DNA of 64,000 bases from Candidatus Woesearchaeota archaeon (GTDB lineage: Archaea; Nanobdellota; Nanobdellia; Woesearchaeales; GW2011-AR4), in assembly GCA_016184145.1 (NCBI GenBank), contig JACPDF010000023.1, positions 1,229 through 65,228 on the forward strand, in the 5' to 3' direction. The position numbers and the translations under genes were made by a program. Shown one piece after another: positions 6,618 through 58,480 of the stretch. The first letter of the stretch is position 1. The number at the start of each line of letters is the position of its first letter. The notes below the pieces were generated by a model, which saw nothing but the letters and a program-made list of their open reading frames with translations, searched no databases and was not told the DNA's origin.

Positions 6618-6895
6618 AATAAAATGAATAGGATAGCAATATTAAATAATAATGCCAATAAGTTCACAAACAAGTGCTCAATTATTTGAGCAAAATAAAT
6701 ATGGCTTGCAAATTAATAAAAAACGCAATAAAAATGAAAAATAATTACCGAGCGTTTTTGCAATAAAAAAGCATGAAGGCAAAAACGCAGGCTATGATTA
6801 AATATTTTTTATTGCCCGAATGAGATAAATTGTGAAAGCAAAAAATGACAAAGCAAATGATTGTACAAAATACGTTAAAAATGGCTGAGGTGTAA
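6618..6895. repeat. intergenic repeat module family 1, copy 1 (reverse orientation); hairpin core 6749-6794
   Basis: AGCGTTTTTGC-N17-GCAAAAACGCAGG, plus more than 150 nt of flanking homology (e.g. aaaaatatttaatcatagcctgcgtttttgcc identical) to the 47162-47509 copy. Confidence 0.6.
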
Positions 6896-7396
6896 TTGAA
6901 AATGGCATTCATGAAACGGGACGTTAACATTGGATTGTTGATTCTGATAATAGCTGCTGTCATAGTATTCAGCAGCTTCAGCGTCTACTACCAAAGCACT
7001 TTCAAGAATGTTTCCCTGGAATACCAGAACAAGCTTGAGCAGCTGAGCCAGATAACAACAGAGCTGTCAAAGCAGAAGCAGGAGCTTAATCAGACCTACA
7101 CTTTAAGGACAAAGATAGAGGAGGATAAAAAGACTCTTGATGTTAAATACACTGAAGTCAGGGATGAGAATAATCAGCTCTCAAGCGACAATACAAACCT
7201 GCGCTTGGAGGTTTCAAGCGCAAAAAGCCAACTGGCGGAAGCGCAAATTGAGCTTGAAAACAAAAAAGTGCAATTGGCGCAGACGCAGGCAGATTTAGCA
7301 ACAGCTAACAGTAAAATAAGCAGCCTGAATAGCGATTTGGATGATGTATGTGCTGCTTTGATCGCTACAGGAGGAACGCACGACGAGTGTGATTAA
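6896..7396 (+). CDS. membrane-anchored coiled-coil protein
   Basis: N-terminal TM helix then heptad-rich Q/E/L/K sequence; C-terminal CxnC. Confidence 0.45.
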   Translation: MKMAFMKRDVNIGLLILIIAAVIVFSSFSVYYQSTFKNVSLEYQNKLEQLSQITTELSKQKQELNQTYTLRTKIEEDKKTLDVKYTEVRDENNQLSSDNTNLRLEVSSAKSQLAEAQIELENKKVQLAQTQADLATANSKISSLNSDLDDVCAALIATGGTHDECD

Positions 7397-15573: not shown

Positions 15574-18183
15574 ATGAGATTTAACAAAACGATAAAGAGA
15601 ATTTCTGCTCTAGGTTTAGGAGCATCAATGGTTGGTGCAACAATCTTCGGCGCAATGGCCGCTGATTTGTCAAACTATCCAAGCCAATACATTAAAGACG
15701 GCAAGTTTACAGGCGTCCTAGTTGTAGGAGACAGAGCTGCAGCAGAAGACGTTATCGGTGTTTCTGACATCGTAGCAAGTTTGCAGTTCGCAGCGACAAA
15801 GCCAGCTGGGGATGTAGCAAGCACACTAACAGCAGAAAATGCCTGGAAAGTCGGAAGCAGCACTAAGATTTTGGAATTAAGCGAAAATATTGCAACAGGC
15901 GATAGCAGAGAAACATTAAGAAACATCACACAATTTGTTGATGATGGTGACTTGAATGCTTTAGCATCTGGAACAGTTACAAATGGAAAAGGAGATGCAC
16001 CATATAACCAATATCTATATCTATTAGGGCCAGGAGGAGGAAATCAAGTAAATACGGGGTATGTTGTCTACACAGAAGATGATAATTCTGTTACAGATAC
16101 GTTCCTATATTTTAAGTCAGGAACTGAAATAGGAAGGTACTTGCTTGAGTTTACAACAGCTCTTGAGTCTGATGTCGATGACAGCGCTGGCGCTGCAACG
16201 ACAACGGGACTTTACCTTACAGATTTTGAGGATACTGACCTCGAGATGTTTGGAAAGAAATATTCTATTGTTACAGCTAGAAGGACATCTTCAACAACTA
16301 ACGGAGGCAAGAACATCAAATTAACTTTGATGGGCGGGGCAGTAAAAGACACACTAGTGGAAGGAAGCACAAAAACCTACACAATTGATGGCAAAGACTA
16401 TGAAGTTACAGTGGATTTCGTAGACTCAAACAGTGCTAAGCTTACCATTAACGGTGAAGCTACAAGAGACTTGCTTGAGGGAGAGACAGACAAGCTTTCT
16501 GACGGAACTACAATAGGAGTCTCAGAGATCCTGTATCAGGACTATGCAGGCGGTGTCCATAATGTGGAGTTTTTCTTGGGAGCCCAAAAAGTAGAGCTGC
16601 AAGATTCAGATGTATCGGATGTTGCATCATCACATGCCCTCAAAGTGGGTGATGATACAATTGATGACGCATTTGTGATTATTGAAGGTACAAATGACAA
16701 CAGTTCATTCAAGATAAGCAGGATACATGTAAACATGACAGCAGATGACGACTTTTATGTGCCAGTAGGAGGCAAATTAAGCGAGAATTCAGATTTGGAT
16801 GAGCCAGAGGTGATATTTACCAATAACTGGGACTTTGAGTACAAAGGATTAAGTGATGAGCTAACAGAAACAATCGAGATAGAAACAAGCGGCAACAAGA
16901 GATACAACCTGAAATTCAAAGACGGAGACGGTGAGGATGTAACACTTCCTTTAATAGAAGCAACAGCTGCTTCAGTGCTGGAGTTCGGAGAAAAAGACAA
17001 AGCATTGATTAATGTAGAAAACAAGACAATAGCCAAAGATGACTACCTCATCTTAACTGACAACTCTAAAAACCGAGGGGAAAGAAAGAGCTATGTACTC
17101 CAATATAAGGGAGCAGATAAATTATCTTCAGATAGCCATGTAGTGAAGTTCAAAAACCTAGGCAATGGTGAAACAATTGAGCAGAGCTATACAAACTCTA
17201 CCCCATTGGCAACCTTAAAGATAGGCGGTGCCGATTACAGAGTTTATGTAGCAGATACTGAAATGGCAGGTCTTCAAGCAAACGATTTTGGCGTTTGGGT
17301 TGATTTAGATTCAAGTGGAGGCTTGGTAAATAACGCCAGCACAAACATTACAACATGGTATGGAATGGAGATAGGGATACAAAACGCTTCAATGATTGGT
17401 GGTTTTTCTGACACCTCGAATGGTGTGATTGTGTCATTTAAAACTCCAGACAATACCAGAGATGGAGGAACTACCCAGGATAATGTAGAGACATTGCAGG
17501 CTACAGATTATGCTGTCAACCTGACATCTGACTCCAGTACGAAGGTAGCGCTTGCTGTACTGACAGGCTGGACAGGGGGACAAAAAGGAACAGCTCTTAG
17601 CGAAAAAACACCTGATGGTGAGACTAATGTGCAGTATACCTATACAAGCTATGGCGCAAAAATAACAAGGAATTCGCCATCAAGCGAGCCAGGAACGCTG
17701 AAAATAGATTATCCAGAGAAGCAAACAGAAGCTTTAGTTTACGTAACTGCTAAAGGAGCAACATTCAGCAGCGTAGCAGAAGGCGGAGCTGTAACAATCC
17801 AAAGGATTGATGTCGGAGCTACAAAATTAGCTTCAGAAGTTGCAAACATCAACAGTGTTAACTCAATCCTTGTTGGAGGGCCATGCGCTAACGCAGCAGC
17901 TGCAGAAGTCATGGGCAACCCAGCAGATTGCACAGCAGGATTTACACCTGGCGTAGGATTAGTCCAGGTCTGGGATGTTGGAACAGGCAATGTTGCCATG
18001 TTGGTAGCTGGTTATGCTGCAGCAGACACAAGAAATGCAGCAGCAGTAGTCTCTAATTACCAGGACTACAAGAGCCAGTTCAAGGGAGCTAAGGTAGAGG
18101 TAAAGAAAGTTGGTTCAACCTTGACTGTTGCTGAGCCAAGCACCGCTGCACCAGCAATGGAAGAAGAAACAACAACTGAATAA
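15574..18183 (+). CDS. secreted S-layer-like surface protein
   Basis: signal peptide MRFNKTIKRISALGLGASMVGATIFGAMA, T/S/D/G-rich, acidic C-terminus, strong RBS. Confidence 0.6.
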   Translation: MRFNKTIKRISALGLGASMVGATIFGAMAADLSNYPSQYIKDGKFTGVLVVGDRAAAEDVIGVSDIVASLQFAATKPAGDVASTLTAENAWKVGSSTKILELSENIATGDSRETLRNITQFVDDGDLNALASGTVTNGKGDAPYNQYLYLLGPGGGNQVNTGYVVYTEDDNSVTDTFLYFKSGTEIGRYLLEFTTALESDVDDSAGAATTTGLYLTDFEDTDLEMFGKKYSIVTARRTSSTTNGGKNIKLTLMGGAVKDTLVEGSTKTYTIDGKDYEVTVDFVDSNSAKLTINGEATRDLLEGETDKLSDGTTIGVSEILYQDYAGGVHNVEFFLGAQKVELQDSDVSDVASSHALKVGDDTIDDAFVIIEGTNDNSSFKISRIHVNMTADDDFYVPVGGKLSENSDLDEPEVIFTNNWDFEYKGLSDELTETIEIETSGNKRYNLKFKDGDGEDVTLPLIEATAASVLEFGEKDKALINVENKTIAKDDYLILTDNSKNRGERKSYVLQYKGADKLSSDSHVVKFKNLGNGETIEQSYTNSTPLATLKIGGADYRVYVADTEMAGLQANDFGVWVDLDSSGGLVNNASTNITTWYGMEIGIQNASMIGGFSDTSNGVIVSFKTPDNTRDGGTTQDNVETLQATDYAVNLTSDSSTKVALAVLTGWTGGQKGTALSEKTPDGETNVQYTYTSYGAKITRNSPSSEPGTLKIDYPEKQTEALVYVTAKGATFSSVAEGGAVTIQRIDVGATKLASEVANINSVNSILVGGPCANAAAAEVMGNPADCTAGFTPGVGLVQVWDVGTGNVAMLVAGYAAADTRNAAAVVSNYQDYKSQFKGAKVEVKKVGSTLTVAEPSTAAPAMEEETTTE

Positions 18184-26963: not shown

Positions 26964-27671
26964 TTGTTTTTCACAATCTTTAAAAATCAGCAGAAATTAT
27001 TTCAGGTTATGGACTTAAAAACGATAAAAAATAAGATACCAAAAGAGCTGTATAATATCCTTGAAAAAGAAATCAAGGCATTAAGGCCTGCCCAGACAAA
27101 AGCCGTGGAAAAAGGCCTTCTGGAAGGAAAAAATCTCCTTGTATGCACTCCTACAGCATCGGGAAAGACCTTGATAGCGGAATTAGCAGCATTAAAGTCC
27201 ATTTTGGAAGGCAGTGGAAAAGCCATATATATAGTCCCGTTAAAGGCGCTTGCATCCGAAAAATTCAGGGATTTTAAGCAAAGATACGGCCATTTGATTA
27301 AAGTTGCTTTGTCAATTGGGGATATAGATTCTGCAGATTCCTATCTGGTTGATTACGACCTTATCATTACAACATCAGAGAAATTAGATAGTTTAATAAG
27401 GCATCATGCTCCATGGCTAAGCCTGATATCAACAATAATTATAGACGAGATTCATTTATTAAATGACCCGGGAAGGGGCCCTACATTGGAAATATTAATC
27501 ACAATATTAAGGCAATTACTGAAAAAATCCCAAATCATAGGATTGTCAGCCACAATTGGGAATCCTGAAGAATTGGCAGAATGGCTAAAAGCAGAGCTGG
27601 TAATTGATGATTGGAGACCGGTAAAGCTGCAAAAAGGGATTTATTTGAATGGGGAGATTGAGTTTGAATAA
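26964..27671 (+). pseudogene. Hel308/Ski2-like DEAD/DEAH helicase, N-terminal RecA domain only (probable truncated remnant)
   Basis: Walker A CTPTASGKT and DEIH present, but the ORF stops after about 235 aa with no domain 2; the stop abuts the first 47-bp repeat of the hicBA cassette. Confidence 0.4.
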
Positions 27672-27781
27672 TTAAAGCCCCAGCCCCTCAACAACAAGCC
27701 TAGGCTCAAATTCCTTTAAGTACGAATGCTTTTGCCATTAAATACAAAAGTTTTAAAAACACCTTAATAATAGTATAGACT

Positions 27782-28045
27782 ATGGAAAAGAAATACTTTA
27801 TGGATATTGTGATTAATAAGGAAAAATTAAGCGATGGAAGTTCTGTTTTTGTAGCTCATTGCCTTACTTTGGGCATTGCCAGCCAAGGCAATGATATGGA
27901 CGAGGCTATGAAAAATATTAAAGAGGCCATTGAATTATACCTAGAAGAGCAACCAGAAAAATATGATATATTAAGCAACGAGCCCCCTTTATTTTCTGTT
28001 GTTGAGGTGACTAAGGGTGCCAAAGCTGCCAGTGTTATCAGGTAA
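27782..28045 (+). CDS. hicB: HicB-like antitoxin (UPF0150 fold)
   Basis: 87 aa, FVAHCLTLGIASQGNDMDEAMKNIKEAIELYLE; overlaps hicA. Confidence 0.55.
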   Translation: MEKKYFMDIVINKEKLSDGSSVFVAHCLTLGIASQGNDMDEAMKNIKEAIELYLEEQPEKYDILSNEPPLFSVVEVTKGAKAASVIR

Positions 28046-28244
28046 AGACATTATCAAAGTTCTTTCTAAAATAGGCTTTGAGCATGTGAGAACAAAAGGA
28101 AGCCATGCAATTTTAAATAAGCAAACAGAAAAAGGCAAGGTAACTGTGCCAGTTCCGTTGCATAAAGAGCTTGCAAAAGGGACATTAAAAAGTATAATGA
28201 AGCAAGCAGGATTAAGTTTAGAGGATCTTCTTAAATTATTATAA
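28017..28244 (+). CDS. hicA: HicA toxin (YcfA-like mRNA interferase)
   Basis: LSGKDIIKVLSKIGFEHVRTKGSHAIL signature, 75 aa. Confidence 0.7.
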   Translation: MPKLPVLSGKDIIKVLSKIGFEHVRTKGSHAILNKQTEKGKVTVPVPLHKELAKGTLKSIMKQAGLSLEDLLKLL

Positions 28245-29549
28245 CTAAAGCCCCAAGCTCTCAACAATAATCCTGGGCTCAAATTCCTTTAAATCCTTAT
28301 ATTCCTGGCCAACGCCCAAATACATTATCGGTTTTTTTGTTATGTAGCTTACAGAAATTGCTGCCCCTCCTTTCTCGTCGACATCGGCTTTTGCCAATAT
28401 TAAGCCGTCTATCCCTACAGCATCATTAAAGCTCTGGGCTTGCTCCACGCAGTCATTGCCGGTTATTGATTCCCCGACAAATACCTTTAAATCAGGCTTT
28501 GCAACTCTCATTATCTTCTTCATCTCTTCCATCAGGTTCTGCTGTGAATGCAGTCTTCCGGCTGTATCTATCAAAACAGCATCAGCATTCTTGGCTTTTG
28601 CATGCTTTATTGCATCGAAAGCTACAGCTGCTGGATCAGAGCCGTAATCATGCCTTATCATCTTCACCCCTAATTTGTCTGCATGCTGCTGCAATTGCTC
28701 AATTGAAGCTGCCCTGAAAGTATCGGAAGCTGCGAGGACAACAGAAAGCTTGTTCTGCTTCAGCATGTTTGCGACTTTTGCTATGCTCGTTGTCTTTCCA
28801 GAGCCGTTAATGCCAAAGAATGCAATAACAAACGGCTTTTCGCCTTTATTCTTGATACTTTTTATCAAATTTATTTTATCCACGTTGAATAAATCTTCTA
28901 TGGAGCTTCTTAATGACTCTTTTATTATCTCTTCAACCCTTGTCCTTTTGATGGGCTTCTCAACTAGATTTTTGGACAAGTCATTTTTTATTTTATCTAT
29001 CACTTCCATAGCAACATTATTTTCCATCAGTATCAGCTCAAGCTCGGAAAACAAACTCTCAAACTTCTCCCGGCTTATTTTTGTGGTTGTTATTTTTTCC
29101 GTTATTCTGCTAAAAAAGCCCTTCTTCTTCTCCAATGCCTGCTCTTTAATTTCCTCTTTTATTCCTGCCTGAGGAGCTTGCTCTTCAATAGCAACTTTTT
29201 TTACGTACTCTAATTCCCTTAGCTCTTCCTCAAGTATATTATCTTCTGCATGTTCTTCTTCAGCAGCTTTCTCTTCGCTTATTTTTTCTTTTATTGGCTC
29301 TGTTTTTTCTTTAATTTCCTTTGTTTTTTGAGTTTCCTTTTGAATTATTTTTTCCGTTTCTATTGGCTTTTCCTTGATTATTGGCTTTGTTTTTTCTTCA
29401 GTTTCTACCGTTTTTTCCTTTTTTATTTGCTCTATTGCTGGCTCTATTGGCTTTTCTTTTATTGGCTCCTCTGCCAGCTTTTCTTCTCCTATCTTCCTAG
29501 AAATCTTTGAGATAGCTCCTTTTAGCTTTTCTTTTAAAAATTTGAACAT
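28245..29549 (-). CDS. ftsY: signal recognition particle receptor FtsY
   Basis: FFGINGSGKTTSIAK, DTAGR motifs; repetitive charged N-terminal region. Confidence 0.9.
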   Translation of the reverse strand: MFKFLKEKLKGAISKISRKIGEEKLAEEPIKEKPIEPAIEQIKKEKTVETEEKTKPIIKEKPIETEKIIQKETQKTKEIKEKTEPIKEKISEEKAAEEEHAEDNILEEELRELEYVKKVAIEEQAPQAGIKEEIKEQALEKKKGFFSRITEKITTTKISREKFESLFSELELILMENNVAMEVIDKIKNDLSKNLVEKPIKRTRVEEIIKESLRSSIEDLFNVDKINLIKSIKNKGEKPFVIAFFGINGSGKTTSIAKVANMLKQNKLSVVLAASDTFRAASIEQLQQHADKLGVKMIRHDYGSDPAAVAFDAIKHAKAKNADAVLIDTAGRLHSQQNLMEEMKKIMRVAKPDLKVFVGESITGNDCVEQAQSFNDAVGIDGLILAKADVDEKGGAAISVSYITKKPIMYLGVGQEYKDLKEFEPRIIVESLGL

Positions 29550-32727: not shown

Positions 32728-32961
32728 TCAAATTCCTATACTCTAATTTTCACAATTATTTGTTATCTCATTATTTTATTGCAAATTTAATCTTTTAAGG
32801 CATTGAAATAAAAATGATATTTATCCTGCGTTTTTGCTATAATCCTTTTTAAAGGCAAAAACGCCGGGTTATATTTCATTTTTTATTTTATTGAATTTTG
32901 ATTTGTTTTGTCAATAATTATTATTGTCAATTTTGTTTATTGGAATTGTTTTTTCATTGGC
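32728..32961. repeat. intergenic repeat module family 1, copy 2; hairpin core 32825-32868
   Basis: CCTGCGTTTTTGC-N17-GGCAAAAACGCCGGG followed by a T-rich tract and ttattgg motifs. Confidence 0.55.
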
Positions 32962-33918: not shown

Positions 33919-34094
33919 GGGAAATGGTAGATATGGCTAATTTTTAAAGGTTTGTTTGTAAATAAGCACAGCGAAAAATTCAAGTTTTAGGTCAGGAAAG
34001 CCTATGGTAAGTGCAGTCAACACACGTGGAGATTTCCGTGCTAATTGACTGCATCCATCAAAAAGTTTTTATATAGGCTTATTTTTTTAAGAAT

Positions 34095-34346: not shown

Positions 34347-34625
34347 TTTGCTTAGTTCTTCTTGCGCGAAGCGCGAGGTATATGTTGGGGCTTTCCATTA
34401 AAAACCCAAAATTGCGACCAATCGTTTTTATGCACGCCCTAAAGAGATGAATGTCAATTCGCGATAATGCCAATAATAAAAACAGAATAGAATTAAAAAC
34501 AACAAAAAACCAATGATATAAACTGATAATAAGCAAAATTATAAAACTGATAATAAATCAAATAAAAAATAATAAACAAGGATAAAACAAATAATTTTAA
34601 ATAAAATAAAAGATTAGCATTTATT

Positions 34626-37579: not shown

Positions 37580-40500
37580 ATGAAAAAACCACTGTTATTT
37601 TTAATAAGCTGTACTTTGTTTTTGTTATTCTCCACAATATCTGTTACTGCACTTTTTGGGAGGGTTGCCTATAATCAGACATTTCATGATATTTGCTTTA
37701 AGATTAATGATGATTATTATCACTTCCTAATTGACCACACCCAGGCAGACAGCTGGCCTTGTGGTGGCATTGATATAACAGACGATTCCATAAGGCTAGA
37801 GTGTATAAGTGATTTTGACGGGGCGTTTCAACACCAGTATGCACCATGTAGGGTAAGTGGAGGTCAATCTTGCGGAAGGTTTAGCTTCTATTCAAACCAG
37901 GCCTATGGAGTACATACAAATTCTGAAGAGCCTAGCTGGGATCCCACAGGACTTTTTGATGGCACTACAACCATAGATGGATATCCTTACTCACAGTACC
38001 TTACAGAAAGCTTCCAACGGGCAAACAGCCCTGTTCCGCATAGATTTTATTCTGATGGCAATTCCTGTCCCTCAGCTATAATTCAATCCACTAGCCCCAA
38101 CAACGATTCATTTACGCACCAAAGGGAGAATACAATAACGATCAACACGGATGCTGTTTCTGAATGCAGGTATTCAAATGATTCAGCTTCAAACTTCGCC
38201 AACATGATATATTTTCAGAGTACAAATTCAAATGCTCACACATTTAGCTTTAATGCAACAGAATTGATAAATTACAGCTTCTATGTAAAATGCAACACTA
38301 CGCTTGGAGACGTGAATAATGAGCATTATATTTTTAGAATTAGAACTGAAAATTTTGCCCCAATAATTGTAAGATCAATCGGAACTTTAACTACTTTGGT
38401 AAACCAGACCTTCATTTATCACGTGTGGGCCTATGATCCGGATGGTGACAAAATAAACGTCTCTGATGATACTGATTTATTTGACATAGATAGCACCACC
38501 GGGTTTATAAACTTCATACCTTTAACAAATGGTACATACAAAATAAATATCAGCGTAAAAGATGACAACACCATAAAATCGTTGAGTTCGTATGAAATTA
38601 TGATGTTGGTTGTTCTTAATGAAAATGATACTATTGCCCCCAATATATCAATTATAAGCCCTCTGAACGGCTCGACAGTAACTACAAACTTCACATGGAT
38701 TAACGCAACCACGAATGAAAGCGCGACATGCAGTTACAAGCTTGAATACGAATGCAGCGACTGCGAGCCTGCTTTTACACAGATGAATAATACAGGAGGG
38801 GCTATACATAAGCATTATATCGATAATCTGGAAAATAAAAGCTATAATCTCACTGTAAGTTGCAAGGATGTGGCATTGAACAAAAAAAATGTTACAATAT
38901 CTTTTAATGTTGCCTTTCCTCAGCCTGCCTCTAGTGAAGGCGGTGGAGGCGGTGGAGGTGGTATAGCAAACATATCAAACCCCTACAACCTGACAATAAC
39001 TGTAAATTCGCCAACAAACAATTCAATAATCAATTCCATTTCCGTAGATTTAGACATTTCAACGGATAGATATGCTGTATGCAGATATAGTTTGGATTCC
39101 GGCATATTTAATTCTTTGGATAGAACAGTCGTGGTAACAAGTGACGCATGGAAAGTTGGAACCTCTACAAAAATATTGGAGATAAGCGAAGACCTTCTAA
39201 TTGGAACAAACAGGGAAACTTTGAGAAACATCACAACCTTTATAGACGATTCAGAGCTAAATGCCTTGGCATCTGGCACAGTTTCAAACTCAAAAGGGGA
39301 TGCTCCATATAACCAATACCTATATCTATTAGGGCCGGGAGCAGCAGCTCAAGTAAATACAGGTTATGTCATCTACACAGAAGATGACAATGACGTGACA
39401 GCAGATTTCCTGTACTTCAAATCAGGAACTGAAATAGCAAGATACCTTTTGGAATTTACAACCTCTCTTGAATCGGATGTTGATGACAATACTGGAACAG
39501 CAACAACAACAGGCCTTTACTTAACGGATTTTGAAGATGTTGATATAACTATGTTTGGCAAAACATATACAATCGTACAAGCGCAAAGAGTAAATTCAAC
39601 TGGAAATAATGTCAAATTAATTTTGATTTCTGGAGCTATAAGAGACACACTAGTGGAAGGAAACACAAAAACATACACAACCGATGGAAAAGACTATGAA
39701 GTTACAGTAGACTACGTAGACTCGAACAGCGCTAAGTTCACAATAAACGGAGAAAGCACAAGAGATTTGCTTGATGGAGACACAGATAAAATATCAGATG
39801 GGACCACAATAGGTGTTTCAGAGATATTGTACCAAGATTATGCTGGCGGTATCCACACCGTAACATTCTTCTTGGGAGCACAGAAAGTGGAGTTAACAGA
39901 TACGAACATAAGAGATGTTGCATCTTCCAATAACCTAAAAATTGATGATGAAACAATAGACGATGCGTATACCATCATAGAGGGAAGTGACAACAACAGC
40001 ACATTTAAGATAGGCAGGATACACGTAAACATGACTGCAGACGATGACTTTTATGTGCCAGCAGGAGGCAAATTAAGCGAGAATCCTGATATGAGTGAGC
40101 CGCAAGTTCTGTTTACGCAAAATTGGGACATAGGGTATTGGGGCTTAACTGACGAACCAATAGAAACTATTGAAATCGCAACTAGCGGTCCTAGTAGATA
40201 CATATTGAAGTTTAAAGATGGAGACGGAAGCGAAGCAAGCCTGCCTTTGGCAGAAGCTGTCGGGGCTTCAACACTAGAATTTGGAGAAAAAAACAGGGCA
40301 TTAGTCAATAGAGAAAATCTGGTTATAACCAAAGATGATTATTTAATTCTCACAGACAGCAGCGAAGAAAGAGGAAAAAGAAAAACATACGCATTGCAGT
40401 ATAAAGGCGCTGATAAGATCACTGCAGACAGCCACGTATTGAAATTTAAGGATTTGGGTAATGGAGAGACAATAGAACAGACTTATACAGACGCCAGCCC

Positions 40501-42799
40501 CTTAGCAACTTTAAAGTTAGGCGGTGCAGATTTCAAAGTCTATAAAGCGCCTGGAGCAAGTATTTCTGCTAATGATTTTGACATACAAGTTGATTTAGAT
40601 GCGGATAGTATTTTAGAAACCTCAGGAGAGTTTATATCAATAACTACTTGGTATGGCGCAGAAATAAACATAACAAATGAAACTGCCAATAGGATAGACT
40701 TCGCTGTTAAAACACCAGATGATGATAGAGACAGCAATGCAGAAGATAATGTCGAGACTTTACAAGCCACAGATTTAACCGGTTATGTATATGTGAGTTC
40801 TGATTCTGTTAACATTCAAAGGACAGGAAATTTGAATTTCAGGACTCCAGGTGGGGAGACTAATGTAGCTTATGCTTATACAAGCTATGGGACGTTTATA
40901 ACCCACAATATGCCATCAGATGAGCCAGCGACATTGGTAATTGAATACCCTGAAAGACAGAGAGAAGCGCTTGTTTATATTACAACACCCCAGCAAACAG
41001 AAAATACCTACAAAAAAACGTTAAATAACTTGGCAGAGGGGCAGCATACAATCCTGATAAACTGCACAGATTCGTTAGGAAAGCCATATACAGAATTTCT
41101 TGGCTTCGACACCGGAAAATTAATAAAAGACCAAAGTTTACAAATCACATTTAATAGCCCAATTAATAACTCGATTTTTTATGGCGATTATGTCAATTTG
41201 GATGTGTCTACGAACAAATCTGCGAATTGTTTGTATAGCCTTGATTATGGTACATACAACAACTTAACCAATCCCTTAATAATAAATGAAACTACCTTAG
41301 TCGATGTTAATGTTTCAATATTTGATGTACTAGTGGAGGGGGAGACTAAAACTTATTCAATAGGCAATTATGATTATGAAGTTACATTAAATTTTGTAAG
41401 TCCTACTGAAGCACAGTTCACAGTTAATGGTGAAACGATATCAAAGCTGGAAAATGGATTTATTGATTACCTTATAGATGGAACCATAATTGGGGTTGAT
41501 GAGATTGTATATGAAGATTTTGCTGGAGGTTTGCACTACGCATATTTCTTTTTAGGGACGGAAATTAACAGTACAACAATACTTAACATTACAAATTTTA
41601 ACACTATTCATTCGATAAACTTGACAAATTTGGATGAGGGTGAACATAATATTAAAGTCAAATGTAACGATATTGATGACAATTACAATAGTGATTTTTT
41701 AAATTTTAAATTTTTTAATAATATTTGCGTGACGAAATGGGAATGCTTAAATTTCTTGTGCGGTTCCGATGAAAGAAAAAGGTGCAACCAAGTTTTTGAC
41801 TTGAATAACTGTTATTCTAAAACTAATCTAGAGAAAGATTTGTACAATGGTGATTATAAAGAGTTTGAAGAAGTGTGTGATTATAATAATGATCACCTAT
41901 TTGGCAATTTTACAAATATTTCCCATAATCTTAATAACCTTAGCTTTGTAATAGAAAATGAAAGTATAAAAATATCAGAAGGAAACGAAACAATATTATT
42001 CTTTAATTTCAGTTTTATTAATTTTGAATTAAATTTTTTCAATATAACAATTCAAAAACAAAATAATCTTTCAACAAAAGGCTCAATTTTCATCTCCGGA
42101 ATAGATCTAACCTCCCAGAATAAAACTAAAACAGTTTATATGGACAAAATAAGCGGCAATAGAGTGTGCATTAAAGACGAAGAAGTTCTTTCAATAAATC
42201 AAATAACGTCTGATTGTTCTAATTCAAGCGAAATTTCTTTGATATGTGATGGTGCAACAAGGAGTGATTACGCATGCACCGATTTAGGAAACAAATATAA
42301 AATAGAAGGATTAATACACTCAGGAGCAATAGAATATACTTTCAATCCTGCACCAGAACCATCCCCACCATCTGGAGGCGGAGGAGGTGGTGGCGGAGGC
42401 GGAGGAGGTGGTGGTGGAGGTTCTGGGCTGTCTTACACCTGCAACATGGACTGGAGCTGCTCAGACTGGTCTGCTTGCGAGGCAGGCTGGGAAACAAGGA
42501 AATGTGATTTTGTAAAAGTTGCGCAGCACACACAGAGTGAAGAGTGCCCATCAATAGATAGTGTACCTGCTATGGCAAGAAAATGCGAAGTAATTCAAGA
42601 GTTGGAAAAAGAGATTAAGGGGGCAGAGGAAAGTGTAAATGATACAGCCAAAACTGAAGAAAGTAAAAATCAAATAACAGGAATGGCTGTTTCTGAAGTT
42701 GAGGGAAAACCAAACTTATTGGTTGGTATAGTATCTTTGATTTTAATAGTAACTATGGGGATTTTCTTGTATTATCGCTTATTTTTCAGAAAGAAATAA
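37580..42799 (+). CDS. giant surface protein (1739 aa): signal peptide, Ig-like/beta-rich domains, embedded S-layer-paralog block, poly-Gly linkers, Cys-rich stalk, C-terminal TM anchor
   Basis: N-terminal signal; residues about 520-1140 are about 75% identical to the 15574-18183 product; GGGGGGGGG and SGGGGGGGGGGGGGGGGSG runs; C-terminal LLVGIVSLILIVTMGIFLYYRLFFRKK. Confidence 0.7.
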   Translation: MKKPLLFLISCTLFLLFSTISVTALFGRVAYNQTFHDICFKINDDYYHFLIDHTQADSWPCGGIDITDDSIRLECISDFDGAFQHQYAPCRVSGGQSCGRFSFYSNQAYGVHTNSEEPSWDPTGLFDGTTTIDGYPYSQYLTESFQRANSPVPHRFYSDGNSCPSAIIQSTSPNNDSFTHQRENTITINTDAVSECRYSNDSASNFANMIYFQSTNSNAHTFSFNATELINYSFYVKCNTTLGDVNNEHYIFRIRTENFAPIIVRSIGTLTTLVNQTFIYHVWAYDPDGDKINVSDDTDLFDIDSTTGFINFIPLTNGTYKINISVKDDNTIKSLSSYEIMMLVVLNENDTIAPNISIISPLNGSTVTTNFTWINATTNESATCSYKLEYECSDCEPAFTQMNNTGGAIHKHYIDNLENKSYNLTVSCKDVALNKKNVTISFNVAFPQPASSEGGGGGGGGIANISNPYNLTITVNSPTNNSIINSISVDLDISTDRYAVCRYSLDSGIFNSLDRTVVVTSDAWKVGTSTKILEISEDLLIGTNRETLRNITTFIDDSELNALASGTVSNSKGDAPYNQYLYLLGPGAAAQVNTGYVIYTEDDNDVTADFLYFKSGTEIARYLLEFTTSLESDVDDNTGTATTTGLYLTDFEDVDITMFGKTYTIVQAQRVNSTGNNVKLILISGAIRDTLVEGNTKTYTTDGKDYEVTVDYVDSNSAKFTINGESTRDLLDGDTDKISDGTTIGVSEILYQDYAGGIHTVTFFLGAQKVELTDTNIRDVASSNNLKIDDETIDDAYTIIEGSDNNSTFKIGRIHVNMTADDDFYVPAGGKLSENPDMSEPQVLFTQNWDIGYWGLTDEPIETIEIATSGPSRYILKFKDGDGSEASLPLAEAVGASTLEFGEKNRALVNRENLVITKDDYLILTDSSEERGKRKTYALQYKGADKITADSHVLKFKDLGNGETIEQTYTDASPLATLKLGGADFKVYKAPGASISANDFDIQVDLDADSILETSGEFISITTWYGAEINITNETANRIDFAVKTPDDDRDSNAEDNVETLQATDLTGYVYVSSDSVNIQRTGNLNFRTPGGETNVAYAYTSYGTFITHNMPSDEPATLVIEYPERQREALVYITTPQQTENTYKKTLNNLAEGQHTILINCTDSLGKPYTEFLGFDTGKLIKDQSLQITFNSPINNSIFYGDYVNLDVSTNKSANCLYSLDYGTYNNLTNPLIINETTLVDVNVSIFDVLVEGETKTYSIGNYDYEVTLNFVSPTEAQFTVNGETISKLENGFIDYLIDGTIIGVDEIVYEDFAGGLHYAYFFLGTEINSTTILNITNFNTIHSINLTNLDEGEHNIKVKCNDIDDNYNSDFLNFKFFNNICVTKWECLNFLCGSDERKRCNQVFDLNNCYSKTNLEKDLYNGDYKEFEEVCDYNNDHLFGNFTNISHNLNNLSFVIENESIKISEGNETILFFNFSFINFELNFFNITIQKQNNLSTKGSIFISGIDLTSQNKTKTVYMDKISGNRVCIKDEEVLSINQITSDCSNSSEISLICDGATRSDYACTDLGNKYKIEGLIHSGAIEYTFNPAPEPSPPSGGGGGGGGGGGGGGGGSGLSYTCNMDWSCSDWSACEAGWETRKCDFVKVAQHTQSEECPSIDSVPAMARKCEVIQELEKEIKGAEESVNDTAKTEESKNQITGMAVSEVEGKPNLLVGIVSLILIVTMGIFLYYRLFFRKK
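39144..40990. repeat. about 1.85-kb paralogous block shared with the S-layer-like gene (15838-17745)
   Basis: DNA stretches such as gatgc(a/t)ccatataaccaata(c/t)ctatatctattagggcc are identical; protein identity about 75% over about 640 aa. Confidence 0.7.
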
Positions 42800-47161: not shown

Positions 47162-47509
47162 TTTTCAAACCAAAATTATTTTTATTTGAATTTTTCCAAT
47201 AATAATCAGTTTCTATCCTATGATGCATAACTATTTGCTATGGTTTATTTAATTTCACTTTTGATATCATTCTTGCATTGAAAAATATTTAATCATAGCC
47301 TGCGTTTTTGCCATCCTGCTTTGCTAAGGCAAAAACGCCGGTTATTATTTTTTTGTTTTTATTGGCATTGTTTTATTGATTTATTTGTAAACTATTGGAT
47401 TTAATGCCTTAGTTGTGCACTTGTTTGCGAGCCTTATTGGCATTCCTTTTTTTATTGCAGCTTTGTTTTGATTATTTTTTGGATTATTCTTTCTGATTTT
47501 CATACTATT
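47162..47509. repeat. intergenic repeat module family 1, copy 3; hairpin core 47299-47341
   Basis: CCTGCGTTTTTGCC-N16-GGCAAAAACGCCGG plus extended homology to copy 1 (gtgcacttgtttgcgagccttattggcatt versus gagcacttgtttgtgaacttattggcatt). Confidence 0.6.
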
Positions 47510-53525: not shown

Positions 53526-54356
53526 CTATTGCTCCATGATCTCATAGAATACATAAAGAACCCTGTCTATTCCCCTGACCAAGTCAAAGCCATTGCCTTC
53601 CACAATAATGCAGTTGCGGTCAAAAGAAACTTTGCTTTCATTCGCTTCCTTCACATATAAAACAAATTTATCTGTATTGTCGCATGTTATTATCGGCCTG
53701 TCCCTGCACGCAAAAGTCTCATTTCTGTCGCAGGCTGCTATAGGCTGCTTAAAGAATATATCTGCCATATGCCGTTCAAAGTCTGCAACTGCAAGAGCTA
53801 CACGCGAAAAATCCTTTCCAGTAGGGTCAAAAGTAACATAATAGTCGGTAGCGTTATTGAAAAGATTGAAATCCAAAGCACCGCTTATCTTAATATCCTC
53901 CACTTCCTTCGGCCCGTACCTGAATTGCACATTATACAATCTGGTCTTTTGTGGGCTTACAAGCTGAATATACCATAAATCCTCAAACTTTACGAAAGAA
54001 TAAACATCTTTGTACAAGTATCCCTGATCCGGCTTTAATTTTCCCTTGAAGTTGAGCTGATGCAGATCATCAATTGTCTTAGGCTGCTCCTGTGTAAAAA
54101 GCCTTATTCCGAATACAACAGCAAAAAGCAGCATCAATAAAACAGCGCCTATTATAAGAATTTTATCTGACTTGAATTTTGCCTCTTTAGGCTCTTCTTT
54201 TTCAGTCTGTGTTTTTTTCTCCGGTATTTCCTCTATTTCCTTTTTCTTTTTTTCATACTCTTCCCTGCTTATGACGCCTTCCTCAAAACTTTCCTCAAGC
54301 TTTTTTAATTTTATTTCTTTCATTGTCAAAAACCACCCATCATAGATGGGTGGCAT
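53526..54356 (-). CDS. membrane-anchored hypothetical protein (paralog of 54622-55284); the true start is probably the internal Met near 54323
   Basis: N-terminal charged SHOCT-like helix and TM; C-terminal region is homologous to the neighbouring gene (RPIITCDNTDKFVLYV.../APVITCSNSTNFVPVVY...). Confidence 0.45.
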   Translation of the reverse strand: MPPIYDGWFLTMKEIKLKKLEESFEEGVISREEYEKKKKEIEEIPEKKTQTEKEEPKEAKFKSDKILIIGAVLLMLLFAVVFGIRLFTQEQPKTIDDLHQLNFKGKLKPDQGYLYKDVYSFVKFEDLWYIQLVSPQKTRLYNVQFRYGPKEVEDIKISGALDFNLFNNATDYYVTFDPTGKDFSRVALAVADFERHMADIFFKQPIAACDRNETFACRDRPIITCDNTDKFVLYVKEANESKVSFDRNCIIVEGNGFDLVRGIDRVLYVFYEIMEQ

Positions 54357-54440
54357 GTAATAATTTTATTATGTATTATGGTGGTTTTTGACTAAGCGAA
54401 TTCCACCACTATTTATCCACCAATCATAGAATTGGTGGAA
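54325..54440. repeat. palindromic element family 2, copy X
   Basis: gtcaaaaaccacc ... ggtggtttttgac 13-bp inverted repeat; ccacccatc/gatgggtgg and ccaccaat/attggtgg palindromes; homologous to 58349-58478. Confidence 0.55.
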
Positions 54441-58348: not shown

Positions 58349-58478
58349 GGAATTCCACCATTGGTGGAATGAGTAGTGCTCAAAAACCACCATCATTGGT
58401 GGAATTCCGAGTATCAAAAACCATTGAATATGAAACTAATGAAAACATGCCACTGGTCTTTGACTGGTGGTTTTTGAC
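58349..58478. repeat. palindromic element family 2, copy Y
   Basis: ttccaccattggtggaa perfect palindrome; tcaaaaaccacca ... tggtggtttttga 13-bp inverted repeat; shares ggtggtttttgac and catgccac with copy X. Confidence 0.55.
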
Positions 58479-58480
58479 AA

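Follow-up and report, generated by a model that had tools for sequence, protein, structure and literature searches.

The window analysed here is a stretch of 64,000 nucleotides (nt) of Candidatus Woesearchaeota archaeon DNA (contig JACPDF010000023.1, positions 1,229 to 65,228), and the element in question is an intergenic hairpin that occurs in it three times, together with conserved flanking sequence. According to Pfam, copy 1 lies between a vWA gene and the gene of a 164-aa protein, copy 2 between the genes of Nop5 and fibrillarin, and copy 3 between the genes of SecD (locus tag HYU50_02780) and EamA. These assignments bore out the original prediction, made from the letters of this DNA, that all three modules lie between co-directional genes and in the same relative orientation. 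We concluded from comparison of sequences that all three sites hold one and the same modular intergenic cassette, which has a low copy number and is specific to Woesearchaeota. Gain and loss of this cassette take place between co-directional genes and often inside operons. The anatomy of the cassette, its conservation, its pattern of presence and absence and its fixed polarity were directly supported by the results below.

Three copies of a modular cassette

In the gene direction, the cassette is arranged in the order R, H (the hairpin) and L. Its parts in the window are as follows, with the strand in brackets.

Copy 1, R: 6649-6750 (+), from the vWA stop codon to the hairpin, starting with AATGCCAATAAGTTCACAAACAAG; nhmmer E 1.6e-8; homologous to 47339-47458 with the hairpin masked, E 2e-6
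Copy 1, hairpin H: 6749-6791 (+), core 6752-6788 = GCGTTTTTGC-N17-GCAAAAACGC; covariance model R1, 67.8 bits
Copy 1, L: 6791-6879 (+), with a T6 run, ATTGCCCGAATGAGATAAA and CAAATGATTGTAC, ending 22 nt before the ATG at 6902; nhmmer E 4.4e-13; 74% over 93 nt to copy 3
Copy 2, L: 32738-32823 (-), upstream of fibrillarin (ATG 32721); nhmmer E 4.6e-9; aligns with the L-like spacer of genome JACPBQ at the same site
Copy 2, hairpin H: 32825-32867 (-), core 32828-32864; covariance model R1, 63.3 bits
Copy 2, degenerate R-side spacer: 32868-32961 (-), after the Nop5 stop codon; no match to the R profile; first ~45 nt common to the spacer of the relative with 91% identity (L074)
Copy 3, extra spacer from L to the EamA ATG: 47162-47211 (-); the whole stretch is absent in relatives
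Copy 3, canonical box resembling a B recognition element and TATA box (BRE/TATA): 47181-47195 (-), 34 nt before the EamA ATG; position weight matrix score 10.0
Copy 3, L: 47212-47299 (-); nhmmer E 1.6e-11
Copy 3, hairpin H: 47299-47341 (-), core 47302-47338; inverted repeat I7 and covariance model
Copy 3, R: 47339-47446 (-), ending at AATGCCAATAAGGCTCGCAAACAAGTGCAC; nhmmer E 4.3e-12
Copy 3, A-rich stretch (gene sense) from the SecD stop codon to R: 47447-47509 (-); part of the 348-nt insertion, from alignment with relatives whose SecD and EamA abut

The hairpin core of 10+10 nt was exact in 3/3 window copies. As a gapped pattern it matched three times in the window and 0.00 times in 100 dinucleotide-preserving shuffles, and the 13-mer arm with up to 2 mismatches matched 10 times against 2.47 expected. 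A covariance model made from 24 copies was run with filters off on the 64-kb window. It returned the three hairpins only, the next match having an E value of ~0.1. All three predicted hairpin positions were recovered, but the ends given as 6794 and 32868 were actually 6791 and 32867, a trivial difference.

In the gene sense, the hairpin of copy 1 reads CGAGCGTTTTTGC...GCAAAAACGCAGG. The A/T-rich stem core has GC clamps, and the unpaired T/C immediately outside the stem is conserved. The outer clamp is imperfect, with a T.C mismatch in copies 2 and 3 and with CCT opposite CGA, or a 1x2 internal loop, in copy 1. The stem of copy 3 can be extended to 37-nt arms (47276-47312 and 47328-47364). Each arm, read 5' to 3', has a T5 run, so the 5' arm carries T5 on either strand.

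The similarity of copies 1 and 3 extends beyond the hairpin. The 32-mer aaaaatatttaatcatagcctgcgtttttgcc reported as common to them was found in both, and local alignment covered ~250 nt. When the hairpin was masked, the flanks still matched, with 93 nt at 74% on the L side (E 1e-10) and 123 nt at 71% on the R side (E 2e-6). We also built flank profile hidden Markov models (nhmmer) trained solely on copies from other genomes, without the window copies. The L profile recovered the L flank in 3/3 window copies (E 4e-13, 2e-11 and 5e-9 for copies 1, 3 and 2), and the R profile recovered the distal flank in copies 1 and 3 only, copy 2 being undetected. What copy 2 has in common with the other window copies is the hairpin and the gene-proximal L flank.

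Comparison over all copies defined the three modules. R is an A-rich module of ~105 nt that follows the stop codon of the upstream gene, with 40-56% A and about 20-30% T in most copies and with the start motif AATGCCAATAAGGCTCACAAACAA. H has an invariant 10-bp core stem and a loop of 16-19 nt with variable sequence. L is ~90 nt long, opens with a T5-7 run and CAATGCC, holds GAATGAGATTAAA and AACAAATAATTGTGAAC, and terminates with ATAAGATAAAA, 11-32 nt ahead of the next ATG. It was found between the hairpin and the next ATG in every case, and the CAGG side of H faces L in 19/19 copies with a detectable L. The downstream gene is co-oriented in ~19/24 copies, with 2 contrary and 3 undetermined. 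L also occurs in related genomes without the hairpin, directly upstream of PdxT, L10 and other genes, as in the PdxS|PdxT and L1|L10 spacers of JACPBQ.

Two small observations concern these modules. The R start motif AATGCCAATAA is also present at window position 34466-34476. In the JACPBQ copy downstream of the L10 gene (L009, 415-426), 12 nt of the 3' arm are duplicated in tandem (GCAAAAACGCACGCAAAAACGCCGGG), which gives the 5' arm two alternative partners.

Copies of the cassette in other genomes

One genome per species (GTDB representatives) was scanned for the exact core, giving 44 loci. Cassette flanks were shared by 6/44: three on contigs of Woesearchaeota JACPBQ01, two in JACPJP01 and one on a contig labelled Deltaproteobacteria. 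The other 38/44 loci, which were bacterial, were ordinary GC-extended terminator-like hairpins, and they were treated as unrelated because they had no common flanks. A scan of metagenome contigs added ~15 further distinct copies, so that the total outside the window was ~21, on DPANN-type contigs. Both collection scans demanded exact arms, and the metagenome scan demanded the 5' CT too; arm constancy is therefore partly built in. A scan of viral contigs for the core gave three matches, which were GC-rich and unrelated.

Exact copies numbered 3 in the representative genome JACPBQ01 and 2 in JACPJP01. In ~129 kb of related loci, there was no extra canonical copy and one diverged copy. With 2-3 exact copies in two representative genomes, the genome-wide count came near the case of a few copies only, for which local duplication had been suggested, but the explanation here is insertion and loss, not local duplication.

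The copies fell into two flank types. The window copies belong to type I. In type II the core is unchanged, the immediate flanks are different and the loop is longer, and L lies ~70-160 nt past H. Directly 5' of this L, in the place that H takes in type I, is a second hairpin (H2) of equal geometry, GGAAATTTTTC-N17-GAAAAATTTCC.

The subfamilies cross sites. Copy 1 was closely similar to the copy in an S12|S7 spacer (L022) over 235 nt, and copy 3 to the copy in a PurP|GMP-synthase spacer (L054) over 262 nt, in both cases at non-orthologous sites. Pfam assignments placed the cassette inside usual operons, namely S12|S7, L10|P1, pyruvate dehydrogenase (PDH) E1beta|E2, PurP-like|GMP synthase and NifU|ABC ATPase, and the Nop5|fibrillarin and SecD|EamA sites of the window are likewise at usual-operon junctions. 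The downstream genes (fibrillarin, EamA, S7, E2, GMP synthase, ABC ATPase, NAC, glycosyltransferase) have no common function.

The locus labelled as bacterial (L030, MGRI01000100.1, 'Deltaproteobacteria bacterium RIFCSPHIGHO2_02_FULL_40_11') has a cassette typical of type II, and a metagenome contig (L059) has an identical one. This contig is probably a misbinned DPANN archaeal contig.

A double mini-hairpin, CGAAC-NNN-GTTCGG-TATCCAC-TGC-GTGGATA, is conserved beside type II cassettes of other Woesearchaeota contigs. It was found at L023 1929-1971 and ~7318-7356, with a similar one in L047 at ~1390-1430, and it is placed either between the hairpins and L or just past an L-like start.

Presence and absence at orthologous sites

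The spacers at orthologous sites were compared with those of relatives. The SecD|EamA spacer is 348 nt in the window and 54, 1 and 2 nt in relatives with SecD identities of 85, 84 and 76%; where the spacer is short, the SecD stop and the EamA start nearly touch. The nop5|fibrillarin spacer, with synteny kept, is 234 nt in the window. Relatives with fibrillarin identities of 91, 87 and 83%, the last being JACPBQ, have spacers of 120, 2 and 204 nt, and the one of 120 nt has just the R-like part. The JACPBQ spacer retains L in full and R in part, and the core palindrome is precisely missing from it (TCC|CGGG). Between vWA and the next gene, relatives have spacers of 173 and 225 nt in which H, L and R are all missing. 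In the 91% relative, the contig stops 68 nt past the vWA stop codon and is already unlike the window there.

Because spacers at orthologous sites differ and similar copies stand at non-orthologous sites, the cassette and its modules are units gained and lost at gene junctions. Among the sites compared, the SecD|EamA cassette is clearly an insertion as judged from the aligned spacers, this being the one case with tight ancestral junctions. Of the options raised at first, that of a small mobile repeat gained support: the cassette lies between unrelated gene pairs elsewhere and is absent from the orthologous spacers of relatives.

A mobile repeat could be entirely selfish. In this explanation, which we regard as rather unlikely although it is the strongest competitor of the one preferred below, the ~40-nt hairpin or R-H-L would be a non-autonomous element without host function, in the manner of repetitive extragenic palindromes (REP), miniature inverted-repeat transposable elements (MITE), Correia elements or enterobacterial repetitive intergenic consensus (ERIC) sequences. 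An enzyme encoded elsewhere would move the element by recognising the hairpin as single-stranded DNA, with the conserved arms as its recognition site, and the orientation bias would reflect which insertions operons tolerate. Presence and absence at orthologous sites, including the precise absence of the core in JACPBQ, fits this explanation, as does the same core within two unrelated flank contexts (types I and II). An L on its own resembles a deletion between AGGCT microhomologies (AATGCCAATGAGGCTATGAA in L077 versus AATAAGGCTCGC...CGCAGGCTATGA in w3, which is copy 3), and the break of the 91% relative's contig so soon after the vWA stop codon is common for assemblies at repeats.

The ends of the cassette speak on both sides. 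An inverted motif, CACAAT...ATTGTG, is near both ends, 12-28 nt inside the conserved boundaries, and reaches 11-14 bp only in some copies. However, the true ends showed no terminal inverted repeats, and a consistent target-site duplication was not found either: none was clear when the SecD|EamA junctions were set against the empty sites, and AGGCT was at both internal R and H boundaries in only 2/13 type I copies. The copy number is also very low for a selfish repeat, with 3 in 64 kb and, for two whole representative genomes, 2-3 exact ones each, and there is no transposase among the annotated genes flanking the copies. In addition, the fixed H-L polarity and the occurrence of L on its own suggest a host-used function.

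Constraint on the hairpin

Two pairs of copies at orthologous sites have the same upstream gene, with upstream proteins 66% and 74% identical. In both pairs all arm positions agree (20/20), against identities of 41-53% for loops and 45-69% for flanks. Arms kept while loops and flanks diverged indicate long residence under selection, not recent spread, which counts against a selfish palindrome. The arm identity across genomes, in copies collected by exact-arm scans, suggests that the arm sequence, and not just the pairing, matters.

The diverged copy (L023:1894-1924), whose genome also has a canonical copy, kept a 9-bp stem via two double changes, G-C to T-A and C-G to A-T. Together with the variable loop length and the swap in type II to a different hairpin of equal geometry, these compensatory changes argue for H acting as a folded hairpin, as RNA or single-stranded DNA, and not as two duplex half-sites.

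The latter arrangement would be a DNA operator, in which the inverted repeat is bound by a transcription factor, dimeric or tetrameric, ahead of the L promoter region and controls a small housekeeping regulon; the GAAAATTTTC pairs of type II would be equivalent sites. Strongly conserved arms around a variable centre look like such an operator, and so does the position upstream of genes, adjoining a reused promoter-proximal module. The arms of H2 in type II are themselves palindromic 10-mers, and the low copy number is regulon-like. Nevertheless, the arm spacing is not fixed but 16, 17, 18 or 19 nt by copy, and a variation of 3 bp would rotate the half-sites by ~100 degrees. The diverged copy changed both arms compensatorily, which preserves a stem and not a protein-binding site. 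The target genes are functionally heterogeneous and differ among related genomes, and the distance of the site from the ATG, ~95-135 nt, puts it well away from the core promoter. We therefore judged an operator to be distinctly improbable.

A structured cis-regulatory RNA, another of the options raised at first, found no support. Rfam gave 0 matches at the gathering threshold in the whole window, and with relaxed settings copy 3 gave only chance miRNA-like hairpin matches far below threshold. The covariation looked for across copies was also absent, since RNAalifold on 13 full-length copies returned the invariant 10-bp stem only, with 0 covarying pairs. The lack of a common function among the associated genes points the same way. 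A candidate long-range helix, ACAAYYATTTG (block a) with CAAATRRTTGT (block d), was rejected, as it is constant only in CACAAT/ATTGTG and not consistently compensated. A tRNA/tmRNA scan of the 64-kb window found none, and inspection of the three copies found no canonical C/D boxes (RUGAUGA, CUGA) or ACA-type features, the stem having no internal pocket.

Possible terminator and promoter signals

In archaea, oligo-T alone is the accepted termination signal. A run of this kind (at least 5 T on the non-template strand, downstream of a gene) is present in the arms, and type I adds a T5-6 run. On the sense strand, no T5 run occurs within 170 nt before H in 17/24 copies. Type I copies have their first T5-6 run 4-19 nt past H, for the most part 11-19 nt away from the core stem. 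The antisense strand of types I and II has T6-7 runs directly after the extended stem (ATTATTATTTTTTATTG). A-tracts upstream and T-tracts downstream of the extendable stem form a layout that would suit a two-way stop signal.

A combined sigma-70 and terminator consensus scan added little. It is uninformative for an archaeon, and its limit to loops of 3-8 nt excludes loops of 16-19 nt, the copy 1 hairpin being left unreported.

A BRE/TATA matrix was trained on 24 of the window's own upstream regions. The consensus, AAACCTTTATAAACA, is sharply placed, starting at -35 from the ATG, and mRNAs in this Woesearchaeota genome would therefore be mostly leaderless or have very short leaders. With this matrix, the TATA-like box TTAAATAT of the original prediction could not be upheld: it has a moderate score of 6.8, lies on the antisense strand, and implies a start site inside the loop. 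Neither TTCACAAY nor GGCATTGAAA was enriched in the window, and TTATTGGCATT was mildly enriched (12 vs 4.9).

The antisense signals could also be read as a small RNA gene, with a TATA-like box (AAAAATATTTAATCA), the hairpin and the T6-7 runs lying opposite the flanking genes. The product would be a short hairpin RNA that brings its own terminator and is tolerated only when antisense to operons. The T-runs directly after the extended-stem hairpin in both types agree with this idea, as do a recurrent moderate matrix match 17-20 nt before the stem (scores 6.4-9.6) and two G.U pairs of the extended stem in copies 2 and 3, which fit the antisense strand alone. However, the matrix start at -35 puts the start site inside the loop, and the antisense RNA would therefore lack the 5' arm. 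Folding energies across the 24 copies differ both ways between the A-strand and the B-strand and favour neither, and no structure or covariation extends past the hairpin. R, L and the fixed polarity toward the downstream gene are left unexplained. An antisense RNA gene thus seems very improbable.

Comparison with known systems

In behaviour, the cassette resembles ERIC, Correia and REP-type repeats, and it lacks at least one defining property of each of REP, MITE, intrinsic terminators and riboswitches. Like the cassette, the ERIC sequences (also intergenic repeat units, IRU) and Correia elements of bacteria are imperfect palindromes of ~100-250 nt with a conserved central inverted repeat, are intergenic within or between transcription units, and are kept across species at positions that differ by genome. 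These elements can have terminator or promoter activity. The cassette differs in that it is in DPANN archaea, has 2-3 exact copies per representative genome versus tens to hundreds, is modular with separable R, H and L, has a fixed polarity to the downstream gene, and shows no terminal inverted repeats or target duplications at its ends.

REP sequences and their REP-associated tyrosine transposases (RAYT) offer another likeness, a short extragenic hairpin with a conserved stem downstream of genes, for which roles in termination and in the stabilisation of mRNA 3' ends have been proposed. The loop of the cassette is, however, much larger (16-19 nt), and its copy number is far lower than tens to hundreds per genome, with no clustered or paired arrays. 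No RAYT-like gene is among the annotated genes flanking the copies, and the cassette is conserved over genomes that differ by 17-34% in housekeeping proteins.

The order of A-tract, stem and T-tract after stop codons between co-directional genes recalls intrinsic terminators, including bidirectional ones, and the antisense T-run directly after the extended stem adds to the likeness. In contrast to the usual loop of 3-8 nt, the loop is 16-19 nt in 24/24 copies, and the sense T-run is mostly 11-19 nt off the core stem. The stem sequence is conserved among unrelated genes and genomes, unlike that of ordinary terminators, and the host is archaeal. The mobile GC clusters of yeast mitochondria are similar as short, relatively GC-rich palindromes present or absent in AT-rich spacers, with a precise empty site in one relative in our case. 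They belong to another domain of life and have no sequence relation, and the cassette core is A/T-rich with GC clamps and tied to flanking modules.

Full-text literature searches found no described Woesearchaeota intergenic motif, no archaeal palindromic repeat of this kind and no DPANN non-coding mobile element.

A possible transcription-unit boundary

The explanation that we prefer, though tentatively and at somewhat less than even confidence, is that the cassette is an insertable transcription-unit boundary: the upstream transcript would be stopped or stabilised by the hairpin and T-tracts, and the downstream gene would make use of L. From this layout we infer termination, stabilisation and promoter activity. 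The upstream transcript would pass through R, which is free of T-runs, would fold H, and would end at oligo-T signals within and just after H. H would guard or set the 3' end, possibly via a sequence-specific binding protein, and the T6-7 runs after H on the opposite strand would halt antisense transcription as well. L would give a start region, as promoter or leader, for the downstream gene. Insertion of the cassette would have cut the direct coupling of that gene to the upstream one.

The terminator plus promoter unit proposed at the outset is close to this boundary, and it was supported in part: judged from sequence only, the T-run layout and the position of L are compatible with it, but with the BRE/TATA matrix neither strand of the cassette showed a consistent strong box. 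The scores of copies 1 and 2 are below 6, and the good box of copy 3 lies outside L, in extra inserted sequence. If the stop at H were efficient, fibrillarin and the copy 1 gene would be left without an obvious promoter. A promoter role of L would thus rest on its position and not on a recognisable core promoter.

Further points weigh against a boundary function. A loop of 16-19 nt with a sense T-run usually >10 nt from the stem is not the geometry of a bacterial intrinsic terminator, and archaeal RNA polymerase is not known to require hairpins for termination. Ascertainment by the exact-arm scans accounts for part of the arm invariance. Flanking open reading frames (ORFs) lie in the other orientation in a few copies (L049, L062).

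A bolder form of the boundary explanation, which we consider unlikely as a whole, is an 'operon splitter': a mobile regulatory cassette of DPANN archaea that would enter between translationally coupled genes, with a sequence-specific, protein-recognised hairpin that ends and stabilises the upstream transcript both ways and a portable start module L for the downstream gene. If this were true, genomes with few transcription factors could rewire their transcription units by a previously undescribed kind of cassette in DPANN archaea.

For Woesearchaeota and other DPANN archaea, uncultured organisms with tiny genomes, the way in which transcription units are defined is hardly known. The cassette provides a conserved, recognisable sequence at split operons, and thus a handle for mapping transcript ends in metatranscriptomes and for finding a hairpin-binding protein. 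If it moves, it would be one more case of a non-coding mobile element, in DPANN archaea. If it is merely a selfish palindrome, its interest is modest, mainly because it marks variation between strains and causes assemblies to break.

Other features of the window

Several features of the window outside the cassettes were recorded. A 43-nt inverted repeat with 79% complementarity (54323-54365 and 58438-58480) lies immediately upstream of two divergently placed genes that start at 54356 (-) and 58481 (+), and its arms hold their own palindromes, ACCACCCATCATAGATGGGTGG and CCACTGGTCTTTGACTGGTGG. It looks like a putative shared operator before two paralogous transporter-type operons.

Around the divergent genes for Nop5 and a CutA1-like protein, two large spacers (33919-34094 and 34347-34465) have relatively GC-rich stretches that could form hairpins, such as gcgcgaagcgcg (34365-34376). 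There is no long ORF and no Rfam match in these two spacers, and they may be unannotated small RNAs.

A 52-nt direct repeat with 87% identity (ATAATTAAAGCCCCAGCCCCTCAACAACAAGCCTAGGCTCAAATTCCTTTAA), at 27668-27719 and 28241-28292, brackets a small ORF (27782-28045), and the two repeats sit at the 3' ends of two convergent genes.

The genes at 15574-18183 and 37580-42799 (1739 aa) have 300-nt segments in common with 76-78% identity (15841-16605 vs 39146-39901), and they appear to be paralogous surface-protein-like genes. The gene at 37580-42799 also contains glycine-rich repeats of the GGAGGCGGTGGA type at 38936-38965 and 42374-42427.

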